A stretch of DNA of 64,000 nucleotides from Candidatus Methanophagaceae archaeon (GTDB lineage: Archaea > Halobacteriota > Syntropharchaeia > Alkanophagales > Methanospirareceae), in NCBI GenBank assembly GCA_003194435.1, contig PQXC01000006.1, positions 3,981-67,980 of the forward strand, read 5' to 3'. Below the pieces are notes generated by a model. The model had not been told where the DNA came from and ran no database searches. It worked only from the letters and a program-made list of their open reading frames with translations. Positions 1 through 33,164 of this stretch are shown here, piece after piece. A program made the translations under genes and the position numbers. Position 1 is the first letter of the stretch; every line of letters starts with the position of its first letter.

Positions 1-1110
1 AGCATTGAGAGCGATTACATACATTGCATGTGCCCATACAAGTGGGCATACCGATTTCTGCAACCTGTTGGCAAATATCTGCTCAGGGATATAAGGCTTT
101 TCCAATCGGTTCAGGACCCAATCATGGTACATCTTTGCTTTTCCAGGCTCTCCCTTCCTCTTATAATATATTGCCATCCAGAAGTTCAATAAAGGCCATG
201 CACCTGCACCCTTACGTCTTACATCGCCGTTCACCATCCACCCATCATATACATCGTTTTCATATCTGTGGACACCTGCACCGTCATGCACTATTCTCCG
301 TTCCATTGCTCTCACTGTGTTCACCATCCGCTCGTCCTGAGCAGAACATACCTCAAATGGATATACCAGTCCAAGTAGAGAGGCATCAACCACATAATCA
401 TTTATCTCGCCAAAAGTGCGGAGGAAATAGCCATGTGAAGGGTCGGGGTCATATGCTCTTTTCAGACTGTTTTCCATCTGTGAAGCGCACAGCAGCCACT
501 TTTTATTCTTATTCTTATTGTTATTATTCTTATCCCCGTTCATCAGCTCGTTTGCGTATCTGAGCCCACACATACAGGCAGCTATCGAATACGTGTGGTT
601 GTCCCCGATATCAGGGTATGTACTTCGCTCTTCCCAGAGGTCGAATGTCGGGATGAGAAAGTGGTTCCTGTACCAGTGTTTGCAGATACCATCTGCCACT
701 TTCGATATCAGTTCTTTGAAGTCCTTCATCGCTTCCTCTTGCTCTCGCTCTTGCCTGTAATTATAATGGTGCCAGATAGCCCACAATAAGGTGCCTGCCT
801 GGTCAGGCTGGAACTGTTCCCCTGCTCTTGCGCCATTTGTGTGATACCGCTGGAAGAAGATACCGTCTGGTGCTTCCGCGCGCTCCATGCACCACTGGAA
901 AAAATCTGCCTGGATATCTAATCCCAATATGTCCGCAGCCACACAGATGAAAGAAGCATCCCTGAGCCACACGTACCGATAGGACGTGACATCGCGGGGA
1001 TAGTATTTCATATCAGTGTTAGCCGCGACTATCGCGCCATTTTCCACTACCGCATCTTTTATCACCCTTCTTGATGCCTCCAACAATGCTTCTCTGGTTA
1101 CCATTTTCAT
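1..1110 (-). CDS. Glycoside hydrolase family 15 (glucoamylase-like), 3' end beyond window start
   Basis: Manual minus-strand translation from ATG at 1110 gives MKMVTREALLEASRRVIKDAVVENGAIVAANTDMKYYPRDVTSYRYVWLRDASF...FDLWEERS... with no stop to position 1. RYVWLRDAS and DLWEE are GH15 hallmarks. ATGA overlap with the stop of the upstream gene. Confidence 0.6.
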   Translation of the reverse strand, partial: MKMVTREALLEASRRVIKDAVVENGAIVAANTDMKYYPRDVTSYRYVWLRDASFICVAADILGLDIQADFFQWCMERAEAPDGIFFQRYHTNGARAGEQFQPDQAGTLLWAIWHHYNYRQEREQEEAMKDFKELISKVADGICKHWYRNHFLIPTFDLWEERSTYPDIGDNHTYSIAACMCGLRYANELMNGDKNNNNKNKNKKWLLCASQMENSLKRAYDPDPSHGYFLRTFGEINDYVVDASLLGLVYPFEVCSAQDERMVNTVRAMERRIVHDGAGVHRYENDVYDGWMVNGDVRRKGAGAWPLLNFWMAIYYKRKGEPGKAKMYHDWVLNRLEKPYIPEQIFANRLQKSVCPLVWAHAMYVIALNA

Positions 1111-2189
1111 TCAAAGACTCGACTCAAACTTAGCAGATGCTTATTACCGATATTAACATATTTGAGATGCCTCTTTGCCGCTTCATAGCAGCGCAAGACC
1201 TGTTCACGTGGCGTTACTGGCATATCGCGCATATAAAAAGCAGGATGGAAGACGAGCAGAGAATAAGGTATTCGTGGATCAATATCAGCGATGAACCGTG
1301 CGATATTCTCAACCTCCTGCGCGTCTACATAGAAAGGCACGAGTAAAGTGGTGGCGGTGAGAACAGGGGTTGAAGACGCAGACGCGGAGACTGCAAAGAA
1401 CTCATCAGCAATGAGCTTGAAGTTCTCGTATGCTCGCTCGTTAGGAACACCGCTGAGTGCGAGACTGAGGTTCGGGTTGAAGGCTTTGAGGTCGAATTTC
1501 ACTATCCCACCACTGGCTGATGACAGTTCCGCTGCCTGGCGCACCAGATTGGTGGAGCCACAGCCGTTCCATTCCCAGCATATTCGCAAGTCCCGCCCAC
1601 GCTCCCGCTCATCCAGAATCCTGCGTGTGGCATGGATAGCAAAAGGAAGCTGGGGCTCGGGACTACCACCAAAGTAACAGATACAGTATGCGTTCTCACG
1701 TCGCAGTACAGCGGACACGAAATCATATTCGCTCATCGCCCTCGCAGCAGCGAGATTCTTATGCGTTTCGTTCTGACAGAAGATGCAATTGAAATTGCAG
1801 CCATAGAAGAATACTGCGACATTCACTTTCCCGGATTGTGAAGAGCCGGGGCAGAACCAGGCGGCGCAGCAATTTGTCGGTAGTGGGTCATAATACACAT
1901 GCATGAGCGCATAGCCTTCGGGCACAGAAGAGACCAATCGCCCATTTATATTGGCTCTAAGACCGCAATAGCCCCTCTCTCCTTCACCCATCTTACATTC
2001 ATTTGCGCACAGACCACAGGTTATACCACCCTTTGTCTTTGGTGGACTGCTCACAAGTTTATATGCCGCTCTTATCTTTGCATGCGCTTCTTCAATATAC
2101 TCCATTCCCTTTCCACGGCGTATGCAATCGGCACAGACACGTAGAGTTGCTGATGCTTTTCTTTCACCACATATCGCACATCTTATCAT
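1107..2189 (-). CDS. Radical SAM protein, pyruvate-formate-lyase-activating-enzyme-like with N-terminal Zn-ribbon
   Basis: CNFNCIFCQN is a CxxxCxxC motif. N-terminal CAICGERKASATLRVCADC and CGLCANEC cysteine pairs. Translationally coupled to the downstream GH15 gene. Confidence 0.7.
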   Translation of the reverse strand: MIRCAICGERKASATLRVCADCIRRGKGMEYIEEAHAKIRAAYKLVSSPPKTKGGITCGLCANECKMGEGERGYCGLRANINGRLVSSVPEGYALMHVYYDPLPTNCCAAWFCPGSSQSGKVNVAVFFYGCNFNCIFCQNETHKNLAAARAMSEYDFVSAVLRRENAYCICYFGGSPEPQLPFAIHATRRILDERERGRDLRICWEWNGCGSTNLVRQAAELSSASGGIVKFDLKAFNPNLSLALSGVPNERAYENFKLIADEFFAVSASASSTPVLTATTLLVPFYVDAQEVENIARFIADIDPRIPYSLLVFHPAFYMRDMPVTPREQVLRCYEAAKRHLKYVNIGNKHLLSLSRVFE

Positions 2190-2399
2190 CTTTTCTTATA
2201 TTTTATGATATTGATATTGAGCAATTACAATTAAAATTAAAATGCTCGTTTGCGTTCCTGTATGTGGCTCAAAAGTTTCAACTGGTAAGTCAACACTTGC
2301 TATATATTGCCTAACTGTTTCGGTGTATGCAAAGTGCGAGATGCTATCTATTATGTGTTATACCGATTTTTGATGCCTTCTCTCTTCACCTCTCACGAT

Positions 2400-3060
2400 C
2401 ATACCCAACGAACTCTTAATATTTAAGATGTAAGCAATCAGTAAAATCTTAAGCGAAGAAAGTTTAATTGTGCAATACAACACATATCTTTTCTCCTGCT
2501 TAACGATCTTTACCTACGACAAATTTAGAACTGGAAATAAGTTACTTTCCCACTCCAGCAGTCGAACCCATAACCTTTTTAGAGGAGGTAAGAATCAGGT
2601 AATGCACCCCACTCCTTGCCGAAGTTTCACTCTCATCAGGAACTCCATCCCTCTCTTTCCAAACAGGTCACTGAATTCCGATGTCTGTATTCCCTCTATT
2701 GCCAGTAATGTGTGCACCCCAGTTCTTTATTGAAGTCCTTAAACGAACAAGACTCGCATGATGCCAAATCATAACTCTCAGGTCCCTCATCTCTTTACCC
2801 GGAACATAGCTCTCCGGCAAGTAATCCATCCTCAACAATTGCGCTAACACTCTGGCATCCACCCTGTCTGTCTTCACATGCTTCTTTGCAAATGGCTTGA
2901 GATAAACCGGATGTGCCAAATGCACTTCTATCCCCCTTTCATCCAGGTATTCATAGATGCCTCGATCGCTACTTTTGCGCCTTCAGGCAACTCACTCCCA
3001 AATTCGTCCAAACCTTCATTCAATCCTATATACATATGCACCTCCTTCTTCCCTATTTAT
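2400..3060 (-). pseudogene. IS110-family transposase remnant (frameshifted and truncated)
   Basis: The 85-aa ORF 2668..2925 contains KTDRVDARVLAQLL, the DEDD-transposase IS110 N-domain motif. An upstream out-of-frame piece MYIGLNEGLDEFGSELPEGAKVAIEASMNTW is present. No intact full-length frame. Confidence 0.4.
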
Positions 3061-3090
3061 AAGGAGGTGTTTTTCATGTAGTCATTTTTT

Positions 3091-3212
3091 CTTATTTCTT
3101 AACTTACTGTCTACTTTTAGGGGTGCACCCCAACTACTCTCAAAATTTTGTCGCTTCCCTATCTACATAGGATTTTAGGAGCTTCTGTAACCCTTTTGTA
3201 AACTCTTTTGGC
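3091..3212. repeat. Solo IS3-family terminal inverted repeat (3091-3133) fused to a 67-bp inverted duplicate of 26980-27046 (AlkD-like gene 5' region)
   Basis: 3091-3133 is the reverse complement of IS left end 27678-27720 (ttggggtgcacccctaaaagtagacagtaagttaagaaataag). 3146-3212 is the reverse complement of 26980-27046 with a few mismatches. Confidence 0.6.
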
Positions 3213-3269
3213 TTATCTGTTTTTCAAGCAGTTTCTTTGTTCTCTCTTGGATTTGTGATTTGTCCATGA

Positions 3270-3782
3270 TCATTTTACCGCACTCCCTGGGCAGATTAAT
3301 CGCATTTTACATTTTGCGCAGGATTTTTTTCTGCCGACTGTTCCGCTATAAAAAGAGATCAAAAGCAGGAGTAATAATATAACAATTTTAAAGAAAGTGA
3401 ATTTCTGAATAAGAGAAATGCTGATTAAGATAAGAGGAATTAAACTTAATAAGCCATAAGTCAAGGGCGCAATTTTTAAACCTAAAGTGTTAGGAAATTT
3501 CTCAATCTCGCCCTTTTTGAAAAATAGAGCAGATAATTTTCCCCAACCTATGCAACACCACTTATCATAATAATAACAATCGGTGCAGACCAATTTTCGT
3601 AGAACAACAAATACCATTACTATTGCAAAGACAAGATAAATCCAAGCAACCACTGGATGAAAAAACCAACAACAAAGAGTTCCTAAAACAATCCAGAGAA
3701 GCATTAGGACATTGCCCAGGATTATGCTACTCTTTGGATATTCTTCTAATCCCTGCTTATAGATTTTTATTTTGTTTTCCAT
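3270..3782 (-). CDS. Cys-rich multi-pass membrane protein, unknown function
   Basis: Four to five hydrophobic helices plus CTDCYYYDKWCC and CAKCKMRLIC clusters. Probable start MENKIKIY (M7 of the track ORF). Confidence 0.4.
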   Translation of the reverse strand: MENKIKIYKQGLEEYPKSSIILGNVLMLLWIVLGTLCCWFFHPVVAWIYLVFAIVMVFVVLRKLVCTDCYYYDKWCCIGWGKLSALFFKKGEIEKFPNTLGLKIAPLTYGLLSLIPLILISISLIQKFTFFKIVILLLLLLISFYSGTVGRKKSCAKCKMRLICPGSAVK

Positions 3783-3844
3783 AGCAGTTTTTCCTTTCAT
3801 AAGTTAAATTAAATCTGGATAAATACCTTTTGTTTTTAAAGGCT

Positions 3845-4086
3845 GGGTTCGGAATTTCATATAACTTCGGTATATCCGCATTGCTGATATATCACATATT
3901 GCACATATACATCCCTCTGGATGAAACTCCTATCTCCTCGATTCTCTTTCCTTTCATCCTTTTGCGCCTCCACCATTCTCTTTCTTAAACAAACTATCTA
4001 ATGGACTTTTTCCTTTTAAATAATTTTCTTTTTTAAGCAGGGCGGAGTGAATTTCGGACAACGGTTTGTGGGTATGCTACTGAGTC
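3845..4086. repeat. Direct repeat copy 1 (about 230 bp) of 5026-5312
   Basis: Aligned by eye: ccggtatatccgcatt...catccctctggatgaaactcctatctcctcgatt...cttaaacaaactatctaatggacttttt...aaataattttcttttttaagc.gggc.gagtgaatttcggacaacg, then a degenerate gggtatgctactgagtcc motif. Confidence 0.6.
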
Positions 4087-4377
4087 CAAATCATTTGAAC
4101 TTGATAAACTTGTCTTAAATTTCAGTGGATAATACCTTGGATTAATATCTTTGTCTTCAATTCTTTCCGTGTTGATAACTTTTATCCTTAGCTCGCTTAA
4201 AAAGGGTGTTTCTGGATAAGGACCAAATGATAAAACCCCCCATTTGCAGGATGCCATTCATCATTAGAGATTTGCTTATATATAGGAACCATCTTAAACT
4301 TATACCCATAGCACAATGTCGCCTAACGTACGGTGGGTATCTGAAGTCCGAGCCGATAGGCGACCGTTGGGCATTCA

Positions 4378-4986
4378 TTATGTGAATATTGATAGTAATC
4401 CAAACACCACCGTTAGAATCATGCCGACAACCGCTAATGGAACAGCCCATTTATTTGTACTTTTTATCTTATTCAGGTCGTCGTTCCTTGCTTGAATTAT
4501 ACTAGCTATTTCAGATAGTTTTCGTTCAACTGCGTCTCTGTTGCCATTCTCAAGATAAGTAGATATATCTATTAAAATACTTCTTTCGATGTCGGGTAGG
4601 TCCGAGTAAGGTGATACTTCTTCAATTTTTTGAATGAAACCTGATATTTTTTCTTTCCACTCTATAAGTGTTTTATCCTCGATAGATTTCTCTATTTCTT
4701 TTGAAATTAATGCGACCATAAATTCTCTAAGCCATCTACTTAAGCGATACCTATAACTTACCTCCTCGCTACTTAAAACACCTATCCCCCTATACACGTT
4801 CTCAATATCGTCTATAGTATTTATCGCCCCAATTTTTAACCCCTCTAAAAGAGCTTTGAAAAATTTCTTTTTGGCTTCATCTCTTTCACCGATTCTTTTC
4901 TTCAATAACAATTGCATTACAAAAGAAGCATATATTGCTGCAAATAGTGCAGTCAAAATATTTATAAAAACATCATACTCCATCAT
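4378..4986 (-). CDS. Hypothetical protein, N- and C-terminal TM helices flanking a coiled-coil region
   Basis: 202-aa ORF with a hydrophobic N-terminus (FINILTALFAAIYASFVMQLLL) and C-terminus (WAVPLAVVGMILTVVFGLLSIF). ATGA overlap with upstream small ORF 4983..5207. Same strand as the OLD-family gene. Confidence 0.5.
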   Translation of the reverse strand: MMEYDVFINILTALFAAIYASFVMQLLLKKRIGERDEAKKKFFKALLEGLKIGAINTIDDIENVYRGIGVLSSEEVSYRYRLSRWLREFMVALISKEIEKSIEDKTLIEWKEKISGFIQKIEEVSPYSDLPDIERSILIDISTYLENGNRDAVERKLSEIASIIQARNDDLNKIKSTNKWAVPLAVVGMILTVVFGLLSIFT

Positions 4987-5207
4987 ATCATCTCCTTAGT
5001 TTTAAGCCCAATGTCGCCTAACTCCGGTATATCCGCATTACTGCATATATCACTCCCATTTGGTATTATATCTGCAATGCGTATATACATCCCTCTGGAT
5101 GAAACTCCTATCTCCTCGATTTTCCTTCCTTTCATCCTTTTGCCATTCTTTTTCTTAAACAAACTATCTAATGGACTTTTTATCTCCCCTATATCTTTAT
5201 TACTCAC
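4983..5207 (-). CDS. Small hypothetical protein (74 aa), translationally coupled to 4378..4986
   Basis: ORF MSNKDIGEIKSPLDSLFKKKNGKRMKGRKIEEIGVSSRG... with stop/start overlap ATGA. Its 5' part and leader are duplicated (degenerate) at 3845-4075. Confidence 0.3.
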   Translation of the reverse strand: MSNKDIGEIKSPLDSLFKKKNGKRMKGRKIEEIGVSSRGMYIRIADIIPNGSDICSNADIPELGDIGLKTKEMI

Positions 5208-5312
5208 ATGTGTATATATTTTATTACCTCCTTTTCCTTTAAATAATTTTCTTTTTTAAGCGGGGCAGAGTGAATTTCGGACAACGCTCCGGGCGTATCT
5301 GAAGTTCCCCGA
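5026..5312. repeat. Direct repeat copy 2 (with internal insertions) of 3845-4086
   Basis: Same alignment as copy 1. Ends in the gggcgtatctgaagttcc motif, which is the left arm of structured repeat B. Confidence 0.6.
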
Positions 5313-5375
5313 AGGGGAATTTTGGCAGAGGTGCGAAGCACTGTAGCCAGATACGCTCTGTTATACGCCGTGCCT
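5279..5375 (-). repeat. Structured repeat B (inverted orientation), family AGGCAYGGCGTATAAC...GAGCGTATCTG...CAGATACGCYC...GTTRTC
   Basis: The reverse complement aligns almost base-for-base with 25473-25565. Contains an 11-bp inverted repeat gagcgtatctg / cagatacgc.c and UUCG-type hairpins (ccccttcgggg, gtgcttcgcac). The core gttatacgccgtgcct (5360-5375) abuts the OLD gene stop. Confidence 0.6.
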
Positions 5376-5376
5376 T

Positions 5377-7173
5377 TCATTCACTCACCAAGTTAAGAAG
5401 TTTTTCAACAATTTCTTTAAGCTCGTGATGCGTAGCGCCGTTCTCTTCATATTTATCCATCTCTAAAATCTCATCTACCCTCATATCCTCAATAATTTTA
5501 ATAACATTTTCTCCAAATAACTTTTTCATATCTGTAAACTCATCATATTGTTGTAAAGTCCTACCAGATCTTTGAATGACGTTAGGGTGAAGATAATTCT
5601 CTATTTCACGCTTTCGAAGAATAAAGAAAACACCTCCTTCTCGTTTGCACTGTTCTTTCCAATTAAGTTTCCTTTGAGGAATGCTGTCAGTTTGGCTTTT
5701 ACGGTCGCTATCCACAACAACGGCAAAACGCCGATTTAATCTCTTCATAGCTCTAAGGTCTATCCAATACTTTAAGTTGCTTCCACCTACAGGGATAAAC
5801 CCGATGTCTTTTTCATCAAAATTAGCTTCTATATGCCCCGCTTCTTTTAATTTGGATGCCACTGTTTTCCAAAATATAATGTCGTCATTACCTTCCACAA
5901 AAACACATGCTTTATACCCAGTTATCTGATCTGAAGGTTCGACGCCAAGCTCTTCTGCAATTTTACTTGTATTAAGGTCTGGAGACCGAATAGACCTTGC
6001 TACGCCGCCTTCGCGTACAATCAATGTCAAATCCTCTATTGGCGAGGCTCCCGCAAAGACGGGAGAGTGCGATGTAATAATGATTTGATACCCCATATCT
6101 GCAAGTTGCCTAAAAGAATACGCCAACTCTCTTTGAAGTCCCGGATGTAGATTATTTTCAGGCTCTTCAACCCCAAAAATAAAATTTGATGTATTTTCAT
6201 CTCGTTTTTCAGCTAAATATTGAAAGAAAGCTACCATTAAAAGTCGTCTTATTCCACTACCACGTTTATCAAGGGGCTTTTCAATTCCGCTATTATCCTT
6301 TGCCAGAATATCTATACTTACAGCTTTATCCCACGAAAAAGTCGGTTTAACTCTGAGAGTTGTTAGATCGCTAGTATGCCTTTTGAGTCGTTCAAATATT
6401 TCATCAACTTCTCTCTGAAGTGCCTCTTCTATGGCGCCGGTAAAGTTGCTTCTCACATCTGCAACTTCTTGTTGTTCGGCAGCCATTTTAATTATCGGAC
6501 GAAATGGACTCTGAAACGATGTTTCGCTTACATTGATTTTTGTTTCGGCTTCAAATAATTGAAAATCTGAAAGGTGTGACTTAATGCATTTCCACAGATC
6601 TCCTTTTGGAGAAACAACGAGTTCGAATTCTCCAAGTGGGATCCCTGCTTCATTTGCCTTAGCTCGAAGTTTTTCTCTTTTACTTTTATTAGTTAACCCA
6701 CGTCCTGCTTTTGAGACATCAATACCGGCTTGTTGGCACCGGCTGTTAAGTTCACGTTCTTTTAAGTTTACTAGACCTGCAAAATGTTCATTCTGAAAGT
6801 CCCAAGTAATAAAAGAAATTTTGACTTTAGTAAGGTCATTGCGTGGATATGTTTTCCGAATCCTAAGACGCCCTTCTTGATCGAGTAACATTTCCTCTTG
6901 AAATGATGTTTCAATTCCCTCCTCTATTTGGATCGTTTCTGGGATATCTGTAAAAGCAATTTCAATAATTACATCTTCATCAGGGTTGGCCATGTCATGG
7001 GTATCCTCACTTTCAATTTTAGGTTTATCTTCAAAAAATAATTGAATTGCTCGTAGAATGCTTGATTTCCCGGCATCATTTTTCCCAACTATTGTTGACA
7101 ATGGACCTAAACGTGTCTCTCCTAACACCTTAAACGGGCGATAGTTTCTAATGCTGATGCTATAAATTCTCAT
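5377..7173 (-). CDS. OLD-family ATP-dependent endonuclease (ABC ATPase + TOPRIM), class-1-like stand-alone
   Basis: Walker A GKNDAGKSS; signature-like LDKRGSGIRRLL; Walker B/D-loop IFGVEEPENNLHP; H-loop ITSHSP. C-terminal TOPRIM ACVFVEGNDD and VVVDSD (E...DxD). Start set at ATG 7173 (MRIYSISIRNYRPF), preceded by GGAGGTGA. The track ORF began on TTG at 7188. Confidence 0.8.
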   Translation of the reverse strand: MRIYSISIRNYRPFKVLGETRLGPLSTIVGKNDAGKSSILRAIQLFFEDKPKIESEDTHDMANPDEDVIIEIAFTDIPETIQIEEGIETSFQEEMLLDQEGRLRIRKTYPRNDLTKVKISFITWDFQNEHFAGLVNLKERELNSRCQQAGIDVSKAGRGLTNKSKREKLRAKANEAGIPLGEFELVVSPKGDLWKCIKSHLSDFQLFEAETKINVSETSFQSPFRPIIKMAAEQQEVADVRSNFTGAIEEALQREVDEIFERLKRHTSDLTTLRVKPTFSWDKAVSIDILAKDNSGIEKPLDKRGSGIRRLLMVAFFQYLAEKRDENTSNFIFGVEEPENNLHPGLQRELAYSFRQLADMGYQIIITSHSPVFAGASPIEDLTLIVREGGVARSIRSPDLNTSKIAEELGVEPSDQITGYKACVFVEGNDDIIFWKTVASKLKEAGHIEANFDEKDIGFIPVGGSNLKYWIDLRAMKRLNRRFAVVVDSDRKSQTDSIPQRKLNWKEQCKREGGVFFILRKREIENYLHPNVIQRSGRTLQQYDEFTDMKKLFGENVIKIIEDMRVDEILEMDKYEENGATHHELKEIVEKLLNLVSE

Positions 7174-7198
7174 TCTTTTCACCTCCAAAAAGATTTTT

Positions 7199-7214
7199 AG
7201 GCATGGCGTATAGC
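7199..7214 (+). repeat. Core-only copy (aggcatggcgtatagc) of the structured repeat family, inverted relative to 5360-5375
   Basis: 16-bp match to the conserved core. Together with 5360-5375 it forms 16-bp terminal inverted repeats bracketing the OLD-family gene (5360..7214, 1855 bp). Confidence 0.5.
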
Positions 7215-7242
7215 GTAGTATATTTGTTTTTCCACATCGGTC

Positions 7243-8835
7243 TCATTCAAGATAATTCTGGAAATACAACTCACTGACGAACTTCTCCATAAAATCCTGT
7301 TCCTCTTCCAGTTTTATATGCTCTATCCGCTTCGCCACTTCTTCCGCTTCGTTTCGCTTCCGTTTCGAGACCAGAGCCTGCCTGGCGCCTTCCAGTGCGG
7401 CATTACCCACCTTCTTCACCTTCTCTCGGGCGATCGGTGGCAGTAGTCCTATACGTATCGCATTATCCGTATTTGCGAAATTAACGAATCCACCTGCGAG
7501 TAATAACAGCTCTATATCATCGAAACTTATGCCATATTTCTCCAACAATACTCTTACACCAACGGCAATAGCCGTTTTAGCAAGGTTCAACTGGTCTATA
7601 TCAGTCTCCAATAGCTTGATACCATCGGCTATCCTCAGTTCCTTTCCCTCATCGCCCGTGAAAGTGAATTTACCCCTGCCATCTATCATTCCATGCTCCA
7701 GTAGCTCAGCCAGAACATCTATCAGTCCGGAACCGCAGATACCAACAGGAGGAGCATCTCCTATCGTCTTATATTTGATGCTACCATCCACTATTCGCAC
7801 CTCCTTTATCGCACCCTGCACGGCACCAACCCCACAGGAGATGCTGGCGCCCTCAAATGCCGGTCCCGAAGCGGCTGAAGTCGCAATTAACCGCTCCCTG
7901 TTGCCGAGCACAATCTCAGTGTTAGTTCCGACATCCAGCGCTAAGCATATCCCTTTACTCAGATACATCTCCGTTGCCAGCACCACTGCGAGCGCATCAG
8001 CGCCGACGAAACTGCCTATCAGTGGTAGCCCATAAACCCGCGCTTCAGGGTTAGCCGTGAGCTGGAGCTCCTTTGCTGTGGTGAGTGCCGGCTCAGTGCT
8101 CTCAGGCTCGTAAGGACTCTTACCCAGCGACTCTACGGAGAAGCCAAAGAACAGGTCTCGCATCACCGGGTTGCCCACAATCACGAGCTCATAGATATTT
8201 TCCTTAGTCTTTGCCACTTCGCTCATATTAGCAATCATCTCATTCACTGCGGTTCTTATCTCCCTCACCAGTATATCATGCCCCTGCCTCGCGTATTCTA
8301 TCCTGCTGATCACATTATTCCCGTATTTCGTCTGCGGGTTCTGCCTTGAACTCACTGAAACCACCTTCCCGGTCTCCAGATCAACCAGATAGGCAGCAAG
8401 CGTGGTGGTACCGATGTCAATGGCGATACCGTACAGCGCTCCCGTATACTCACCTATATATGTGGAGTTGTAAAATACCCGCTCGCCTTCACGGTGTACA
8501 AAGGGCTCTATTGGTATCCATCTATATTCGCCAGACTCCAGTATGTAATATCCACTCTTCGGTACTCTGACATATATCTGCTCGTCGGTTCGCAATATCC
8601 GCGCCTGACATGCGAGTCGCTGGTTTTCTGCTTTGATAAACTTCCTCTCTGAGTCGGTTACAGCGGAGAGCGCATCAGGTGGAGCATCCACCTCAACTAT
8701 GCACTGACCACATTTGCCCTCACCGGCACATGAAGCATCTATTTCTATTCCCAGTTCCTGTAGATAAGATAATATTGTCCGACCCGCAACGAGTTCCGCC
8801 TCTCTGGTCTGTCCATCCCTGAATATTATCTTCAT
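7243..8835 (-). CDS. Corrinoid activation/regeneration protein (RACo/RamA-like): 2Fe-2S ferredoxin + ASKHA ATPase domain
   Basis: N-terminal plant-type ferredoxin motif CAGEGKCGQC...C followed by a long DUF4445/ASKHA-like domain (GIAIDIGTTT, ALDVGTNTE, GICGSG). Start set at ATG 8835 (MKIIFRDG). The track ORF started at TTG 8859. Confidence 0.7.
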   Translation of the reverse strand: MKIIFRDGQTREAELVAGRTILSYLQELGIEIDASCAGEGKCGQCIVEVDAPPDALSAVTDSERKFIKAENQRLACQARILRTDEQIYVRVPKSGYYILESGEYRWIPIEPFVHREGERVFYNSTYIGEYTGALYGIAIDIGTTTLAAYLVDLETGKVVSVSSRQNPQTKYGNNVISRIEYARQGHDILVREIRTAVNEMIANMSEVAKTKENIYELVIVGNPVMRDLFFGFSVESLGKSPYEPESTEPALTTAKELQLTANPEARVYGLPLIGSFVGADALAVVLATEMYLSKGICLALDVGTNTEIVLGNRERLIATSAASGPAFEGASISCGVGAVQGAIKEVRIVDGSIKYKTIGDAPPVGICGSGLIDVLAELLEHGMIDGRGKFTFTGDEGKELRIADGIKLLETDIDQLNLAKTAIAVGVRVLLEKYGISFDDIELLLLAGGFVNFANTDNAIRIGLLPPIAREKVKKVGNAALEGARQALVSKRKRNEAEEVAKRIEHIKLEEEQDFMEKFVSELYFQNYLE

Positions 8836-8926
8836 CGTGCTAAAAAACCTTTCTTTCAAAAAGAAAGCTTTACCAAGATTATATTTATTTTATGTACCAA
8901 AATAAAAAAGAAAAAAATGGATTCGA

Positions 8927-24687: not shown

Positions 24688-24769
24688 TACAGTAACGCGA
24701 ACACGTATACTATACCCATTTCTTGAATAAAACCAATTTACGGGGTAGTAAACATAGAGCTCAAGGGGC

Positions 24770-24839
24770 GATCCGCTAATCTTGATGACCCAAACCCTTA
24801 CGGGCTTCGCATACCCGCAAAGCGTTATACGCCATGCCT
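24770..24839 (-). repeat. Diverged, inverted copy (D) of the structured repeat family; core gcgttatacgccatgcct at 24822-24839
   Basis: Reverse complement reads ttaggcatggcgtataacgctttgcgggtatgcgaagcccgtaaggg. Shares the 16-18-bp core with 7199-7214, 5360-5375 and 25473-25488. Confidence 0.5.
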
Positions 24840-24848
24840 AAGAGGTAG

Positions 24849-25278
24849 ATGAAGATGAGAAGAAAGATAAGAGTATACTTGGTCACTTCGGTAATTTCAG
24901 CGCTATTTGATGAAAGGAATCCAGAGAGGAAATCACTCACAGAAGCTTTTTTCGCGGAAATAGATAATTTTGAGACTTTCATCCCGCACTCCCGACATGG
25001 AACTCCAAAGCAAATTGAAGGATGCAGTATCGCGATTTTCAGTGCTCTCTTTAACCGATGACGTTGAATGGGTAGCGCGCGAGTATATCCCAGTTCCAGA
25101 GAGTTACTCTGAGGATGCCTACCATATTGCCATCGCTGTTATAAACGAGGTAGACTATCTTTTGAGTTGGAACTTCAAGCACATAGTGAGGAGGAAAACG
25201 AGAGACATAGTGAGGATGGTAAATACTTTAAATAACCTGAGACAAATAGAAATTATGGCACCTGCAGAATTGCTATAG
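24849..25278 (+). pseudogene. PIN-domain (VapC-like) toxin gene split by a +1 frameshift; first catalytic Asp replaced (RVYLVTSVISAL)
   Basis: ORF 24849..25061 carries the N-terminal PIN strand (vyLDTsvi-like). ORF 24970..25278 in the +1 frame carries the C-terminal PIN half (DAYHIAIAVINEVDYLLSWNFKHI). Confidence 0.55.
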
Positions 25279-25287
25279 GAGGCAGAT

Positions 25288-25614
25288 ATGAGCAAGATTA
25301 AGGAAGAAGATATTGAGAACATAAGAAAAGCCATAGAAAAGGAGTTTCCAGAAGACCCTGCTTTACAACAGGTTCACATCGCGAGGAAAATCATTGCTAA
25401 AGAAGCGCAACTTGAAGGATTAAGTTTCTTTGAATACGTCAAATTGTTGGGGAAGCGAGTAGTTAACAATGAAGGCACGGCGTATAACAGAGCGTATCTG
25501 GCTTCGGTTATAGCCTTCGCCAAAATTCCCACGCGGGGAACTTCAGATACGCTCGGAACGTTATCTGCAATTGCTTGGCTTATAGTGAGGTGTGAAAATG
25601 GGACGTCTTATTAA
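25288..25614 (+). CDS. Hypothetical protein (108-aa ORF whose C-terminal 45 codons run through structured repeat A)
   Basis: ORF only. The 3' third is encoded by the repeat, so the native stop is probably lost. Confidence 0.3.
   Translation: MSKIKEEDIENIRKAIEKEFPEDPALQQVHIARKIIAKEAQLEGLSFFEYVKLLGKRVVNNEGTAYNRAYLASVIAFAKIPTRGTSDTLGTLSAIAWLIVRCENGTSY
25473..25565 (+). repeat. Structured repeat A (reference copy): AGGCACGGCGTATAAC-aga-GCGTATCTG-[two hairpins]-CAGATACGC-tcggaac-GTTATC
   Basis: Seen directly. 9-11-bp perfect inverted repeat, internal GGCTTCGG...AGCC and TTCCCacgcGGGGAA hairpins, ATAAC/GTTAT outer inverted boxes. Confidence 0.6.
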
Positions 25615-26950
25615 AATACACGATATAGACGAGTTTTCAGAAGTCAAAACTATCCCAGATGCAACTATAAATAACGAAATACTGACTAACATCAGAAATT
25701 TAGATGAAAAAAAGGAACTGGAGCGTTTTCTTCGAGAAATTTTATATGATCCAAATGAAACTCCTCATGGTCCTACGGAAATAGCAGATATATTGACAAA
25801 TGTACATGTTAGAGGAGATAAGCGATTAACTGCTTTTGTTTTGAAAGGAAAAAGCTTCCAAAGAGTTTCAAGTAGACATGTAACTCATCAATTCGCTAAA
25901 CTCCGGCAAATCTCAGAACTCGGTTTGATGGTTTTTGGAGCAGTCGGGAATATCCAAGATGATGCTCAGAGAGATTTTGTGCAAATAGCTATTGATGCAG
26001 GATGTGACTATCTTATCATGGATGCTCAGGACTTGGCACGCTTGTTTATTGCCTATGAAAAAATCTGTCCAAAAGATGGGACACCTTATGATGATACAGG
26101 CACATGTAAAAAAGGGCATGTGCGAGATAAGGGTTTGCCTTTAGAAATGGAAGTAAGAGAAAAAATACGATACACCATTGTAAATCAAAAAGACGTAAGC
26201 CACGCTGGAGCCAAACGTTACTCTGCTACTATTCTTTTAGACAGGCATTATCCTAAGGATGTAATTAGAACAATTATTCAAGAAGCAACAGAGAAGCTGA
26301 AATATAGCAGTTATTACCGTAGTGAACGACTGAAAGCACGCTGGGGGAAAAATCCTGCTCATGTAGTGTGGCTATTCATAGCTTATGACTTAGAGGATAT
26401 TCAAAATGCAAATTGGGTCTGTCGTACTTGTTGGATAGATCCATCGTTAACAAAAGATATGCGTCCTGTTGATTTAAATGGTAATGAAAAACTCGGAGAT
26501 ATAGAAATCCTTTGGAACGATGACTATAAACCATATAAGAACTTCTTTGAAACTTTCTCTGGCACGAAGGAGGAATTTTTGGGAGCCATTCAGCCCATAT
26601 TGAATGAAATGATAGAGTTTGCTAAACGAGCAATTGAGTATTTTGAAGAATACCGCCGAGGGAACATTCCTGAAGAGGAGTTGATCTTGAGGATGCAAAA
26701 GATGGAACCAAGGGTCACGGAATTTTACTTGCAATCAGGAAATATCCCTATGCCTCCCGAAGACTGTAAGGACTATGACCAAGCTTGCCAGAATATTTTT
26801 GCTACTATCCACGATATGTTTCTCTATTTTTCTAAAAGAGGGTTAGAAACATGGCCTAAACGAAATAGAGATTGGTTAATGCAGGACACTATAAAGCGAT
26901 TTTATAATGATATGAATAGGATTAGATTTGAAGAGACTAAGATACATTGA
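25592..26950 (+). CDS. Hypothetical 452-aa protein, island cargo (possible nuclease-like N-domain)
   Basis: Long intact ORF with no recognisable motif beyond a possible alpha/beta N-domain. Bounded by repeat A upstream and half-repeat C starting at its stop codon. Confidence 0.55.
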   Translation: MKMGRLIKIHDIDEFSEVKTIPDATINNEILTNIRNLDEKKELERFLREILYDPNETPHGPTEIADILTNVHVRGDKRLTAFVLKGKSFQRVSSRHVTHQFAKLRQISELGLMVFGAVGNIQDDAQRDFVQIAIDAGCDYLIMDAQDLARLFIAYEKICPKDGTPYDDTGTCKKGHVRDKGLPLEMEVREKIRYTIVNQKDVSHAGAKRYSATILLDRHYPKDVIRTIIQEATEKLKYSSYYRSERLKARWGKNPAHVVWLFIAYDLEDIQNANWVCRTCWIDPSLTKDMRPVDLNGNEKLGDIEILWNDDYKPYKNFFETFSGTKEEFLGAIQPILNEMIEFAKRAIEYFEEYRRGNIPEEELILRMQKMEPRVTEFYLQSGNIPMPPEDCKDYDQACQNIFATIHDMFLYFSKRGLETWPKRNRDWLMQDTIKRFYNDMNRIRFEETKIH

Positions 26951-26951
26951 T

Positions 26952-26976
26952 ACTTCAGATACGCTCGAAACGCTAA
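26952..26976 (+). repeat. Half copy (right arm, cttcagatacgctcgaaacg) of the structured repeat family
   Basis: Matches the right arm of repeat A in the same orientation. Begins immediately after the TGA of the 452-aa gene. Confidence 0.5.
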
Positions 26977-26977
26977 G

Positions 26978-27739
26978 TGGCAAAAAGAGTTTACAAGAGG
27001 GTTACAGGAGCTCCTAAAATCCTATGTAGATAGGGAAGCGACAAAAAATTATCAAAGGATTATCCCAGATACTGGAAAATTTTATGGAGTTCCACTTCCT
27101 GTTTTGAGAATAATATCTGCCGAAATAGGAAAGTTTATCCAGAAAGAACCAACAAAAGCTACGACATTGTTAGAAACTATCTGGGATGAAGGTTCCTTTG
27201 AATCAAGACAGATAGCAGGGAAATGCTTAGAGAAGTTTGGTCCAAAGAATCCAAAAATTTGTTTAGATTTTGTCTCTTCAGTATTACCTGATCTTGATAA
27301 TTGGGCTGTTTGTGATAATCTTGCCATGTGTGGAGTAGAACCAATAGTTTATTCCAATCCGGAACTCGTTTTACCTCTCTCTGAAAGATGGATTAAGAGC
27401 GAGAACAAATGGATCAGGCGGTTTGGAGTGGTAAGTTTACGAGGATACAAGAGAATCCAAATAACAGATAAAGCTTTCGAGATTCTTGATCTGGTCATGG
27501 AAGACAAAGACAAAGATATAAAAAAGGCGGTATCGTGGGTTTTGAGAGAAATAACAAAGAAGAATCCAGATGGGGTGGCAGAGTTTTTAACACGATGGGC
27601 AGAGGCAAAGCCAGATAAGAATGCGAGATGGATCATAAAGGATGGGATGAAAAAGCTGCCAAAAGAAATGCAGACTGAAATCTTAACTTGGGGTGCACCC
27701 CTAAAAGTAGACAGTAAGTTAAGAAATAAGAAAAAATGA
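26978..27739 (+). pseudogene. AlkD-like DNA alkylation repair (HEAT-repeat DNA glycosylase) gene, start codon lost at 5' end and 3' end reading into the IS3 inverted repeat
   Basis: Open frame from 26951 with no ATG/GTG until TTG 27104, yet the upstream codons encode the conserved AlkD N-terminal region (LQELLKSYVDREATKNYQRIIPDTGKFYGVPLPVLRIISAEIGK). Same frame as the 452-aa ORF, separated by one TGA. The last 17 codons (WGAPLKVDSKLRNKKK) are IS terminal-repeat sequence. Confidence 0.55.
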
Positions 27740-28071
27740 AAAAGGGGTGCAAGATGAAAAGAAGGAGGCAATATACACGGGATTTCAAAATTGGTGTAAT
27801 TAGAGAGGTCGAGAGTGGAAAAACGCTTGCCCAGGTGTCACGTGAGAACGAGATACATCCATCTCTCGTGGTGAAATGGAAGAAGGAATACTTTAGGGAC
27901 CCGGAAAATGCCTTTCGTGGCAACGGGAAGGCATATAAAGAGCAAGCAAGGATGGCAGAGCTTGAAAGGCTGGTTGGGCAGTTATACGCAGAAAACGAGT
28001 TTTTAAAAAAAGCATTGACCAGATTGGAAGTCAAAATCAAGGAAGAGGAGGTAAAAGAAGCACGGGGGTGA
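27736..28071 (+). CDS. IS3-family transposase OrfA (HTH)
   Basis: RRQYTRDFKIGVIREVESGKTLAQVSRENEIHPSLVVKWKKEY, leucine-zipper-like C-terminus. Confidence 0.85.
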   Translation: MKKGCKMKRRRQYTRDFKIGVIREVESGKTLAQVSRENEIHPSLVVKWKKEYFRDPENAFRGNGKAYKEQARMAELERLVGQLYAENEFLKKALTRLEVKIKEEEVKEARG

Positions 28072-29003
28072 AATACATGCTCATAAAAGAGAGTCTCGAA
28101 TCTGGAAGCCAAATATCAGTAAATCGAGCCACGCAATTATTGGGCGTAAGCAGATGCGGGTTCTATAAGTGGCTCGGGCAATCGAAGACCGGACAGGTGA
28201 ACGCCATACCGGACATGGACGTTAGAAACGAAATACAGAAGATCGCCGTGGAGTTCCCCGCATACGGATACAGACGGATAACCGCCGAACTCCGGAATCG
28301 TGGTTATTCGGTGAACCATAAACGTGTACTCAGGCTCATGAGAGAAGACAATCTCCTTTGCGTTCGTAAGGATTTTAAGCCAAAAACCACCGATTCCAGG
28401 CACGATCTCAGGGTCTATCCCAATCTTGTGAAGGGGTTGAAGATAACCCGATTGAATCAGGTATGGGCTTCCGATATCACTTATATCCGTCTATCGGGCG
28501 AATTCGTCTACCTGGCGGTAATCCTGGACCTCTTCAGCAGGAAATGCATCGGATGGAATCTGGATAGAAGCCTTCACACAGAACTGGCGTTAAAAGCTCT
28601 GGCTATGGCAATAGAAACACGCTGGAATGAGAACCTGCGGGGACTGATTCACCACTCAGATCAGGGAGTTCAATATGCCTCGGAAGAATATATCGGATGT
28701 CTCAAAGCGCATGGAATCCTGATCAGCATGTCAGCGCGTGGCAACCCCTACGATAATGCATTCGTAGAGAGCTTCATCCGGACATTGAAGTATGAAGAGG
28801 TCTATCTCAATGAATATGAGACCTTCTCCGACGCCTTAGATAATATCGCTCATTTCATAGAGGACGTATACAACAAAAAGAGGCTGCATTCTGCCATAGG
28901 GTACCGCTCTCCCATAGACTTCGAGAAGGAAATGGAGATGGAGATGGAGATGGAAATGGAAAAGGGGGTGAAAGCATCGAAAGTTTTAAATACTGTTTCT
29001 TAA
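28068..29003 (+). CDS. IS3-family transposase OrfB (rve integrase core, DDE)
   Basis: WASDITYIR...HHSDQGVQYAS...NAFVESF (D, D, E triad region). In the -1 frame relative to orfA. Confidence 0.85.
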   Translation: MKYMLIKESLESGSQISVNRATQLLGVSRCGFYKWLGQSKTGQVNAIPDMDVRNEIQKIAVEFPAYGYRRITAELRNRGYSVNHKRVLRLMREDNLLCVRKDFKPKTTDSRHDLRVYPNLVKGLKITRLNQVWASDITYIRLSGEFVYLAVILDLFSRKCIGWNLDRSLHTELALKALAMAIETRWNENLRGLIHHSDQGVQYASEEYIGCLKAHGILISMSARGNPYDNAFVESFIRTLKYEEVYLNEYETFSDALDNIAHFIEDVYNKKRLHSAIGYRSPIDFEKEMEMEMEMEMEKGVKASKVLNTVS

Positions 29004-32720: not shown

Positions 32721-32952
32721 CTACCATTCGGCAATCTATGAGTAGAAATAACACCTATAACAGCACTGAAAAGAAGGTCCAAAAATTCTTCTTTTAAGAT
32801 ATTTTTGGTGTATCCATGGAATCTGAATTCTATAAGGTAATGTGGCATTTTTATCTGTTGTAGGTCTTTACTTAAACTGGAATACAAATAGTCAATTATA
32901 GAATACAAATCACCTAAATTGTTTGGATTTACAGGAGGAAGTGAATGACTTG

Positions 32953-33010
32953 CGAAATGGCGTATAACAGCGGATAAAAGGCTTCGATGCTTCACACCTT
33001 CGCCCAAGTG
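32953..33010 (+). repeat. Copy E of the structured repeat family (ggcgtataacagcgg...ggcttcgatgcttcacaccttcgcc), right half diverged
   Basis: Shares the GGCGTATAACAG core and the ggcttcg..ccttcgcc central part with repeats A and B. Lies at the boundary between the accessory island and cofH. Confidence 0.45.
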
Positions 33011-33164
33011 GTGTTCAAATATCGTCTTCTATATTTTTGCTGTGTATCTGTAACGACTCTTTCATAATGATATTTTTACAAGGAGGGTATGTAAAGGCTA
33101 ATGTTTTGGTAGACAGTTGTTCGAAGATTTTTGTGAGGGAATGTTAATAAAATAATCCTAAATC

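Follow-up and report, generated by a model that had tools for sequence, protein, structure and literature searches.

How an OLD-family nuclease gene came to lie in the chromosome of an ANME-1 archaeon, and whether it works there alone or together with the genes that follow it, are the questions raised by this locus. The window, which is the whole stretch of DNA analysed (64,000 nucleotides), carries the features that the first-pass annotation had claimed, at the coordinates given there and on the minus strand, as are all features located below. Its view of the OLD gene as foreign DNA placed between housekeeping genes and bracketed by mobile-element signatures was borne out, and the GC content drops from ~50% to 33-40% across 2000..7200. 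Taking the evidence together, we consider it likely that the gene is a self-contained Class-1-like OLD cassette, probably antiviral, in the first position of an integron-like array.

The OLD-family ATPase-TOPRIM nuclease gene (5377..7173) starts with ATG at 7173, ends at 5377 and is preceded by a GGAGGTG ribosome-binding site at 7186..7180. The gene had been correctly recognised, but its product is 598 aa long, or 603 aa if an upstream TTG is used, rather than 599 aa. The complete OLD architecture proposed for it was confirmed by Pfam matches (AAA_15, 1.7e-45; AAA_21, 1.2e-19), by PADLOC searches, in which many GajA models also matched, and by motifs that are invariant in 31 homologues. These motifs are the Walker A G30..G35-K36-S37, the signature R304-G305-G307, the Walker B E336-E337-P338-E339, the H-loop H369, and the TOPRIM residues E427-G428 and D488-S489-D490. 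The gene product is a complete OLD-family ATPase and TOPRIM protein with intact catalytic motifs, and it is predicted to have nuclease activity. The best solved relative by sequence is 6P74, the Class 1 OLD of Thermus scotoductus (1.6e-12). When the AF2 model (pLDDT 83) was searched with Foldseek, 6P74 was again at the top (1.5e-15), narrowly in front of GajA (3.1e-15), and both folds matched the model over the full length; the effector of retron Eco8, which is listed among the retron-associated Class 3 OLDs, matched at ~7e-12. The protein belongs to a tight subfamily of ~598 aa whose members share 60-80% identity across many bacterial and archaeal phyla.

The gene stands alone, since the five contexts in which OLD was found have no flanking gene in common, and here it is followed by an attC-like site, a recombinase remnant and a 202-aa orphan protein. 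As the annotation had stated, no UvrD-like GajB partner is adjacent; neither a helicase ORF nor a Pfam match of this kind was found among the flanking ORFs that were profiled. We also found no reverse transcriptase among the neighbours, no Rfam match in 2000..7400 and no separate AriB gene near OLD. Gabija (Class 2) is ruled out by the absence of a GajB helicase gene beside OLD, and a retron-associated OLD (Class 3) by neighbours without a reverse transcriptase and by the lack of an Rfam ncRNA match in 2000..7400. The Cran1 type (Class 5), defined as a vertically inherited, essential gene restricted to one lineage, the Sulfolobales (PMC12796447), does not fit a gene with presence/absence polymorphism, foreign GC and cross-domain distribution. 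GajA, the retron Eco8 effector and AriA/AriB of PARIS (Class 4) belong to the same ATPase and TOPRIM fold family, but their companions (GajB/UvrD, reverse transcriptase with ncRNA, and separate AriB, respectively) are missing beside OLD here. A Class-1-like architecture, in which an ABC/SMC-type ATPase and a two-metal TOPRIM nuclease are joined in the product of a single gene without partner, is the best reading of these sequences. Like P2 Old, 6P74 and Vc OLD of Vibrio cholerae, the protein has an ABC-type ATPase at the N-terminus fused to a C-terminal TOPRIM domain, with all catalytic motifs, and it is encoded by a stand-alone gene in a variable neighbourhood. The relationship is nevertheless distant, as 6P74 shows 16% identity in the fold alignment and the alignment with P2 Old covers just 17% of the query.

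The first-pass annotation had left the choice between a class-1 OLD and a fused PARIS-like protein; of the two, the stand-alone, Class-1-like protein is favoured. That the protein is instead a fused AriA-AriB, with viral anti-restriction proteins as the trigger and a TOPRIM nuclease that targets tRNA rather than DNA, is in our judgement unlikely. AriA is indeed the top PADLOC match (5.8e-44), but this model spans the generic AAA_15 ATPase only, and the PADLOC Old model matches at 2.7e-34. The C-terminal domain alone matches AriB (1.4e-5) and AriAB (1.1e-3), and with the isolated TOPRIM region the GajA and AriB models match equally well (~1e-5). The weak Pfam match to DUF4435 (3.3e-3) reaches 17.7 bits, below the cut-off of 27, whereas OLD-like_TOPRIM (PF20469) passes with 27.7 bits against a cut-off of 23.2. 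By both sequence and fold, the Thermus OLD and GajA are the closest solved structures, and no PARIS protein is among the top 50.

The Class-1-like OLD gene lies in a 1.9-kb cassette (5285..7213) comprising a 5' half-core, CTATACGCCATGCC, the ribosome-binding site, the OLD ORF, and the attC of the cassette as far as the G of R'. The attC-like site (5279..5375) scores 103.8 bits (E 3.6e-24) with the covariance model and consists of an extended R'' (AGGCACGGCGTATAAC, 5375..5360), an 11-bp L stem, two inner hairpins and the R' GTTGTCC (5285..5279). The upstream one of the two 16-bp inverted cores that had been noticed around the gene, GCTATACGCCATGCCT (7199..7214), corresponds to an extended R' half. 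The inverted cores are real: 7214..7199 and 5375..5360 are complementary at 14 of 16 positions, a score reached by none of 500 shuffles, and judged from their sequences each forms one half of an attC-like recombination site.

Comparison with related loci located the boundaries of this cassette. The segment 7216/7188..5274 is common to the window, to locus L012 (98.5% identity, in another context) and to loci L013-15 (83%), and the cassette junctions in these comparisons fall at G|TT. In a related strain (L008) OLD is absent and the same RACo gene end is joined straight to the cassette of the 202-aa protein. In L066 this RACo junction recurs with its G|TT intact, and the 5' junction of the OLD cassette in the window is G|CT instead of G|TT. 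Around OLD copies of 98%, 83%, 74% and 67% DNA identity the neighbouring genes are entirely different; in L012 and L073 (98%), another gene follows OLD. A match to the attC model was detected ~5-20 nt (mostly 5 nt) past the OLD stop codon in 15 of 80 metagenomic OLD loci, and in 14 of the ~19 evaluable loci with at least 72% identity, evaluable being our reading of which loci have enough downstream sequence. These comparisons demonstrate the cassette boundaries, the presence/absence polymorphism and the recurrence of the cassette elsewhere, and the OLD gene is evidently a discrete single-gene mobile cassette in an ANME-1 chromosome.

The site that starts 5 nt after the OLD stop codon is a conserved structured element of ~105 nt. 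Exact copies of its 24-nt core occur in 43 contigs of diverse archaeal and bacterial origin; ANME-1, other Methanosarcinales-type archaea, Thermoplasmatales, Asgard and DPANN archaea and at least nine bacterial phyla have the identical core. The R'' of this attC family ends with AAC and the R' begins with GTT. The family forms a three-way junction with unusually conserved sequence: across 50 copies, 89% of structure cells pair compared with 82% after shuffling (matched by 0 of 500 shuffles), and 17 pairs show compensatory changes. The 11-bp helix of the L stem is almost perfect (93.8% paired) and has no obvious extrahelical bases; it is at the R/L internal loop that the site is asymmetric (1-3 against 5-7 nt). 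Using the covariance model, which was built in this analysis, we detected sites at 5375..5269 and 4427..4311 of the window and 84 matches in related loci, which form arrays of 2-5 co-oriented sites spaced roughly 0.1-7 kb, mostly 0.5-2 kb, apart. Integrons and CALINs are recognised by at least two co-oriented attC sites less than 4 kb apart that have an R'' RYYYAAC and a GTTRRRY-like R' in an imperfect hairpin, and the window sites are co-oriented attC sites of this description.

A trace of the crossover itself was also observed. Among 32 cassettes, the R'' of a site is perfectly complementary to the R' of the upstream site in 12, compared with 4.1 expected (P ~5e-5); the remaining 20 have no perfect R'/R'' match, and complementarity to the adjacent R' of the same site is at chance level. 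Since the 5' core of the OLD site matches the 3' core of the upstream site, the cassette bears the signature of an integron-type G|TT crossover. A truncated attI-like site (7214..7242) lies directly past the RACo stop codon and ends with ...AAATATACTACG, which places the crossover point between G7214 and C7213. It can be aligned with the RACo-adjacent site of L008 and with attI-like sites located after the IntI-like recombinase genes of L012, L043, L044 and L025. In these four recombinase loci and in L075, a conserved attI-like site lies directly past the recombinase stop codon, continues into G|TT and is followed by a cassette whose own R'' matches; it is kept after the recombinase gene in both archaeal and bacterial loci. 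In L075 the order is recombinase, attI-like site, OLD as the first cassette, and attC. We place the OLD cassette of the window first, in the attI-proximal position, in an integron-like array that begins directly past the RACo gene. Its most likely route of arrival is a site-specific recombination in which its own hairpin-forming attC and the attI-like site crossed over at G|TT.

It is quite improbable that the ~105-nt repeats are instead terminators, 3'-UTR RNA elements or MITE-like repeats, between which genes were shuffled by ordinary homologous recombination. The element is unusually conserved for an attC, folds on either strand, always lies 3' of an ORF and has no matching Rfam family, and the associated recombinase has no IntI domain, all of which would agree with such repeats. 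Homologous recombination, however, would not pair a variable 5' core with the variable 3' core of the upstream site, would not set the junctions exactly at G|TT, and would not join cassettes to a different, attI-like site directly past a recombinase gene. The site structure and the crossover signature are demonstrated by the data above.

The catalyst of the proposed site-specific recombination would be an IntI-related tyrosine recombinase, of which the window keeps 3' remnants and which is intact beside sister arrays. An ORF-less repeat unit (5022..5284) contains a 3' remnant of an IntI-like recombinase gene (~5240..5160), in which 27 aa match residues 316-342 of the recombinase in L012 at 70% identity, and an attI-like site ending GCGGATATACCGGAG|TT (G5022). 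A second unit of recombinase remnant and attI-like site (3865..4061), recognised by repeat and attI alignments, ends GCGGATATACCGAAG|TTATAT. Among the ORFs flanking either window array we found no intact recombinase gene, only the 27-aa remnants. The recombinases of the sister arrays pass the model NF040815 (annotated XerA/integron integrase), but with TIGR02249 they score 239 and 218 bits, below the cut-off of 265, with profile positions 180-232 skipped. They have a gap of ~41 residues relative to an approximate IntI1 sequence and an extra N-terminal extension of ~70 aa. Because these tyrosine recombinases do not have the additional domain specific to IntI, membership in the canonical integrons is unproven, and the activity of an IntI-related recombinase on these sites is what their sequences suggest.

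We then consider the function of the OLD cassette. By analogy with P2 Old and Vc OLD, the protein is most likely a DNA nickase or nuclease that is regulated by ATP and works without a partner, and it would block replication of invading viruses or other mobile DNA. To our knowledge, RecBCD inhibition, the classical proposal for P2 Old, cannot be the trigger of this OLD. In bacteria, OLD nucleases are established effectors against viruses. Among Class 1, the OLDs of P2 and V. cholerae have antiviral activity (PMC12392090), and a phyletic pattern in which bacteria and archaea are mixed typifies defence genes (PMC12796447). PIN, HEPN/MNT and E2-CBASS genes are present in sister arrays. A point against is that no relatives were found in viral contigs. 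Based on this analysis, the OLD cassette probably has an antiviral role, although, unlike the Class 1 exemplars, its host is an archaeon, and in archaea no OLD has been shown to defend (PMC12796447). The only archaeal OLD studied so far, Cran1, is an essential cell-cycle factor and not defensive (PMC12796447), and the ~598-aa subfamily has no known defence phenotype. Both points would suit a housekeeping role in chromatin or the cell cycle, or a selfish addiction element that stabilises the array. Such a non-antiviral role has little probability in our view; Cran1-type genes are vertically inherited and confined to Sulfolobales (PMC12796447), whereas this OLD gene is polymorphic between close strains, foreign in GC and cassette-borne, with relatives 60-80% identical across bacterial and archaeal phyla.

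It had also been proposed that OLD forms a three-gene module with a 74-aa and a 202-aa protein. Both ORFs (5207..4983 and 4986..4378) exist and are co-oriented with OLD. The 74-aa ORF and a 58-aa ORF (5380..5204) overlap the repeat unit 5022..5284; both lie in repeated DNA that is either non-coding or a pseudogene, and neither is a credible gene. What had been taken for a 74-aa protein is evidently the remaining 3' end of an IntI-related recombinase gene, with the frame running on through an attI-like site. The 202-aa ORF belongs to a cassette of its own (4327..5021), which encodes a two-TM orphan protein and has a short degenerate attC (GCCCAAC...CCGTACG|TTAGGC, 22 bits with the covariance model); an identical GTTAGGCGACATTG at 5022..5009 and 4327..4314 brackets it. 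The terminal TM helices predicted for the product agree with our all-helical model, which has long hydrophobic terminal helices. The exact protein is found on 22 short contigs with varied flanks, and homologues in L063 and L064 occur without OLD. After the second remnant unit come one or more cassettes (3132..3864), which encode a membrane protein of 176 aa (3800..3270) and the first part of a DNA_alkylation gene. The end of an IS interrupts this gene at 3131; in L002 it is complete (260 aa). The 176-aa protein shows 69% identity to an L012 protein at a different array position, where a 153-aa DUF3795 gene is called. The 202-aa membrane protein is a separate orphan cassette and an unrelated neighbour of OLD. 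A co-transcribed defence module with the membrane protein as sensor or effector is extremely unlikely. The ORFs do point the same way at short distances, with an ATGA overlap between the 74-aa and the 202-aa ORF, and the 202-aa protein has a weak XhlA-like C-terminal match (28.8 bits, cut-off 34.7), but no neighbour is kept across the OLD contexts described above, an attC and an attI-like site separate the genes, and outside this lineage the downstream genes never occur with OLD homologues.

The array that holds the OLD cassette can be compared with known integrons. Archaeal integrons and CALINs, which include an ANME-1 MAG with seven attCs and one IntI (Ghaly et al. 2022, PMC9668308), are alike in their co-oriented single-ORF cassettes, hairpin sites with R'' ...AAC and R' GTT..., G|TT crossover, attI just past a recombinase gene of the same direction, sites shared between domains, and cassettes for TA, defence and membrane proteins. 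They differ in that the recombinases here have the N-terminal extension but no IntI-specific insertion, and in that the attC family here is a highly conserved three-way junction with no evident L-box extrahelical bases. The IntegronFinder table of that survey lists none of the twelve contig prefixes that we checked. Integron cassettes in bacteria encode defence systems (bioRxiv 10.1101/2024.07.02.601719), and the OLD cassette resembles them as a compact, promoter-poor cassette with a 3' attC in an array that serves as a stockpile; here, however, the host is an archaeon and the chromosomal array has no resident integrase. We tentatively raise the possibility, which we hold to be doubtful, that the cassette is part of a class of integron-like platforms not described as such, with an insertion-less IntI-related recombinase that has a novel N-terminal extension and is co-directional with the array, an attI abutting the stop codon, and the highly conserved ~105-nt three-way-junction attC with no L-box extrahelical bases.

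Gene adjacency in arrays of this kind does not amount to a functional module. A mobile and strain-variable OLD in an uncultured methane-oxidising archaeon is a candidate with which archaeal OLD defence may be tested, and a recombination site common to archaea and bacteria nearly base for base makes the exchange of defence genes between domains testable. If the proposed class of platforms exists, it would move defence genes such as OLD across domains in anoxic sediments, and with this OLD archaea would have their first mobile OLD nuclease of the defence type.

The OLD gene (7173..5377 (-)) encodes a 598-aa product, is preceded by a ribosome-binding site (GGAGGTG, 7186..7180) and lies directly downstream of the housekeeping gene for a RACo/RamA-type corrinoid activase (RACo, 8859..7243 (-)). 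On the same strand there follow two short ORFs (58 and 74 aa), an ORF of 202 aa (4986..4378 (-)), the gene of a 176-aa membrane protein (3800..3270 (-)) and a piece of a DNA_alkylation gene, truncated by IS debris. Genes for Hsp20, DnaK and the thermosome are located upstream of the array, with a radical-SAM gene past IS debris. The GC content is 33-40% across 2000..7200 versus approximately 50% in the housekeeping flanks, and close copies of the region come from hydrothermal-sediment metagenomes. We conclude that the OLD gene is an autonomous single-gene cassette (7213..5285) at the attI-proximal position, next to the cassette-receiving site, of an integron-like array beside RACo.

When we searched the 598-aa product against Pfam, it matched AAA_15 (1.7e-45), AAA_21 and OLD-like_TOPRIM (27.7 bits, cut-off 23.2), and DUF4435 of the PARIS AriB type stayed under the Pfam cut-off. 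PADLOC returned Old at 2.7e-34, together with many GajA models and AriA over the ATPase part only. The Walker A, signature and Walker B motifs, the H-loop, the TOPRIM Glu and DxD are invariant in an alignment of 31 homologues. Among solved structures, 6P74 (Class 1 OLD from Thermus scotoductus) comes closest in sequence (1.6e-12), and the AlphaFold model (pLDDT 83) also matches 6P74 first (1.5e-15), then GajA and the retron Eco8 effector. Because of these profile matches, invariant motifs, and sequence and fold matches to 6P74, the protein is a bona fide OLD-family member, as the first-pass annotation had proposed; it has Class-1 architecture and forms its own subfamily. GajA and AriB profiles are about equally distant from the TOPRIM region alone, and the alignment of P2 Old to the protein is restricted to the signature region. 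Subfamily members of approximately 598 aa with 60-80% identity occur in Zixibacteria, Chloroflexota, Bacillota, Thermaceae, Desulfobaccales, Thermoplasmata and ANME-1, and none was found in the viral contig collection searched. Membership of the gene in a Gabija or a retron system was rejected.

The gene had also been described as bounded by 16-bp inverted cores, and these (7214..7199 and 5375..5360) are indeed complementary at 14 of 16 positions, with none of 500 shuffles as good. The downstream core is the 5' end of an element of approximately 105 nt that starts 2 nt after the OLD stop codon and has the layout AGGCACGGCGTATAAC-AGAGCGTATCTGG...(two hairpins)...CTTCAGATACGCCCGGAGC-GTTGTCC. Its 24-nt core (AACTTCAGATACGCNCGGRRCGTT) is found exactly in 43 genome contigs, from archaea (many Methanophagales, Methanosarcinales, Methanocellales, Thermoplasmatales, Altiarchaeales, Hydrothermarchaeales, Heimdallarchaeota and Iainarchaeum) and from bacteria (Bipolaricaulota, WOR-3, Ignavibacteria, Bacteroidales, Nitrospirae, Dehalococcoidia, Atribacterota, Actinomycetota and Proteobacteria). 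Viral scans with the core gave no match, and a literature search for its sequence gave unrelated primers only. Rfam scans, run over the entire window with gathering thresholds and over 2000..7400 with E<=1, gave two tRNAs only and left the repeats unmatched. A group II intron or tRNA-like origin of the repeats was considered and dropped, and a MITE or terminator reading was rejected.

The element resembles attC, the cassette recombination site. Since RNAalifold on a gappy MAFFT alignment of the site gave 3 pairs only, the attC structure was set by hand on 50 aligned copies (7-bp outer R stem, 11-bp L stem and two inner hairpins) and then tested by pair counts against shuffles and slid registers. 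In this structure 89% of cells pair versus 82% in shuffles, compensatory changes are present at 17 pairs, and no shuffle or slid register came near its pairing score. The three outermost R pairs are often unpaired across copies, which is expected if the distal half of R', the 3' core, belongs to the next cassette. A covariance model detected two strong (104 and 101 bits) and two weak copies in the window and 84 copies in related loci, and the sites form co-oriented arrays of 2-5 with a spacing of approximately 0.1-7 kb, mostly 0.5-2 kb. The model matches approximately 5-20 nt (mostly 5 nt) past the OLD stop in 15 of 80 metagenomic OLD loci, and these 15 are all at least 65% identical to the query. 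At 72% identity or above, 14 of the about 19 loci that had, by our own reading, enough downstream sequence to be evaluable carry the site. More distant OLD homologues, such as those in Thermoplasmata loci L017 and L019, lie in other kinds of island.

A tyrosine recombinase of 324-350 aa stands beside the sister arrays in L012, in L043 (ANME-1), in L044 (WOR-3), in L025 (Thermoplasmatales) and in L075, and a more distant one is present in L061. This recombinase passes NCBIfam NF040815 ('site-specific tyrosine recombinase/integron integrase') and scores 218-239 bits with TIGR02249 (integron integrase). It stays below the 265-bit cut-off of this model because it lacks profile positions 180-232, which make up the IntI-specific insertion. 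Compared with IntI1, it shows 34% identity, a gap of approximately 41 residues at this insertion and an extra N-terminal extension of approximately 70 aa. Directly 3' of its stop codon is a conserved site of GATATAC-type boxes ending ...G|TT, and a cassette follows. The window has three such attI-like sites: those at 5100..5022 and 3945..3865 come after recombinase remnants, and a truncated one follows RACo immediately (7242..7214). The attI-like site after RACo is succeeded by the OLD cassette in the window and in L066 and by a TTGTCC... unit in L008, and L075 shows the full order of recombinase, attI-like site, OLD as first cassette and attC. A unit of recombinase 3' remnant and attI-like site is also located just upstream of the intact recombinase gene of L012 (1299..1429), and therefore such units appear to be duplicated within platforms. 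In the sibling contig L066 the OLD match ends at residue 595 and the next 116 nt (4286..4401) are unrelated to attC, perhaps because DNA was inserted there or because the assembly broke at the repeat.

Integrons recombine between G and TT of R' (GTTRRRY), and therefore the first bases of a cassette, not the R' that follows, are complementary to the 5' core (R'') of its own attC. When we scored the four variable R'' positions in 32 cassettes bounded by two detected sites, R'' was perfectly complementary to the upstream R' in 12 (4.1 expected at random; P ~5e-5), and complementarity to the adjacent R' was at chance level. The OLD cassette obeys this rule, starting with (T/C)TATACGCCATGCC and having its own site begin with GGCACGGCGTATAA, and homology of the window to L012 and L013 ends within a few bases of G|TT on both sides. 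The mobile-element signatures that the first-pass annotation saw around the gene are specifically an integron-type cassette boundary. At the 5' junction of the cassette (7214/7213) the window has G|CT, but L066 (~2410), where the junction is the same in all other respects, has G|TT. The mutation of the crossover triplet might have left the cassette immobile in the window strain. In L013 two attC sites 5.2 kb apart (607..5979), with perfectly matching R'/R'' cores (GTTAAGT, ACTTAAC), have seven genes between them, among which are those of thymidylate kinase, PfkB and HhH-GPD. The segment may be a multi-gene cassette of unusual size, or sites that once lay within it may have disappeared.

It had been proposed that OLD and the 74-aa and 202-aa proteins form one anti-virus module, and this did not survive comparison. 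First, in L008, from a related strain with a 91% identical RACo end, RACo and the repeat lead directly to the 202-aa gene without OLD between them. Second, the OLD copy in L012 (98.5% DNA identity) is in a wholly different context, other copies are at 83%, 74% and 67% DNA identity, and no flanking gene is common to the OLD contexts. Third, distant 202-aa homologues in L063 and L064 have no OLD nearby. Finally, over 27 aa the 74-aa ORF shares 70% identity with the very end (C-terminal VSNKxIGxIKSPLDSL) of the intact L012 recombinase; it is a recombinase pseudogene remnant that is by chance open through the following site. A three-gene operon was rejected, since the comparative neighbourhoods separate the genes. 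The 58-aa ORF is a translation of attC, and the same pseudo-peptide is seen wherever an ORF runs through such a site. These read-through ORFs (5380..5204 (-) and 25288..25614 (+) in the window, and in many loci) share the recurring pseudo-peptide GTAYNRAYLA...IP.RGTSDT, with tblastn matches in >20 loci, and gene callers may label them conserved hypothetical proteins or C-terminal extensions. A second copy of the stretch that holds these two small ORFs lies another 1.2 kb along (5010-5298 matches 3853-4075), and part of the stretch also recurs at 25.5 kb.

The 202-aa protein, an orphan, is found in identical form on 22 short contigs with varied flanks, and NCBI has it annotated for an ANME-1 MAG (Candidatus Methanophagaceae). 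The search yielded no more than 22 homologues; the N-terminal TM helix is variable, and the helical body and C-terminal TM helix are conserved. Its predicted structure is all-helical (pLDDT 76), and a fold search gave no PDB match at E<0.5. PADLOC, PHROGs, Pfam and NCBIfam searches with the 58-, 74-, 176- and 202-aa products gave only a sub-threshold XhlA match. The Cys-rich membrane protein of 176 aa shares 69% identity with the product of L012 3671..4199, by coordinates the 153-aa DUF3795 gene called in L012. This gene lies two cassettes upstream of OLD in L012, not downstream as in the window, illustrating cassette shuffling.

A second cassette array (24740..27714 (+)) is located after hisB. 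It opens with a degenerate site (...CAAAGCG|TTATACGCCATGCC, 24826 (+)), followed by an apparently frameshifted PIN-like gene (ORFs 24849..25061 and 24970..25278 (+)), a strong attC crossed by a short ORF (25473..25576 (+), 101 bits), a 452-aa orphan gene (25592..26950 (+)) and a half site (26953 (+)) with a DNA_alkylation gene next. The PIN gene shares 90% identity with the cassette that directly follows the recombinase in L043, and the 452-aa cassette is 84% identical to one between two attCs in a Thermoplasmatales MAG (L047). PADLOC gave no match with the orphan cassette proteins of this array and of L012. A 409-aa orphan ORF, without Pfam or PADLOC matches, and a degenerate attC-like site behind it (32953..33059 (+), 26 bits, E ~3e-4) may represent a third, decayed cassette (31491..33059 (+)). 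Each array has at its distal end a DNA_alkylation gene that abuts an identical 25-nt IS end (GGGGTGCACCCCTAAAAGTAGACAG), and the two IS ends are inverted relative to each other (3131..3107 (-) and 27690..27714 (+)). The one at 27.7 kb is part of an IS3-family element (HTH_Tnp_1 and rve ORFs, 27736..29003), and at 3.1 kb an IS110-type transposase fragment (2925..2668) comes next. An IS-mediated inversion may have moved the two arrays apart or rearranged them.

Either the OLD cassette was inserted into the RACo array at its attI-proximal position, or L008 has lost it from there. In Class 1 OLDs, ABC-type ATPase heads control a two-metal TOPRIM nuclease (PMC7049728), and the window protein would probably be regulated in the same way. 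Vc OLD, a DNA nickase, keeps phage genomes from replicating and depends on both of its active sites (PMC12392090). The sole characterised archaeal OLD is non-defensive (PMC12796447). By analogy, we favour a defensive role for the window OLD, because the gene is mobile and polymorphic between strains, because it has spread across domains, a phyletic pattern typical of defence genes (PMC12796447), because PIN, HEPN/MNT and E2-CBASS genes are present in sister arrays, and because defence systems in integron cassettes have precedent.

Integrons and CALINs are already known from archaea, an ANME-1 MAG among them, with attI immediately downstream of intI, attC sharing across domains, and TA, defence and membrane cassettes (PMC9668308). 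The window and sister arrays work like these. None of twelve contig prefixes from our genome matches is in the IntegronFinder table of Ghaly et al., in which a sister ANME-1 MAG (QENK01) is present (PMC9668308). However, the arrays differ from the canonical integron and were not filed as such, because the recombinase of the sister arrays is without the IntI-specific domain and the L stem of the attC-like site shows no evident extrahelical bases. The family of the OLD gene is known, and so is the kind of vehicle that carries it. This vehicle is possibly a non-canonical, cross-domain integron variant, which, if true, would be the most interesting point of the locus.
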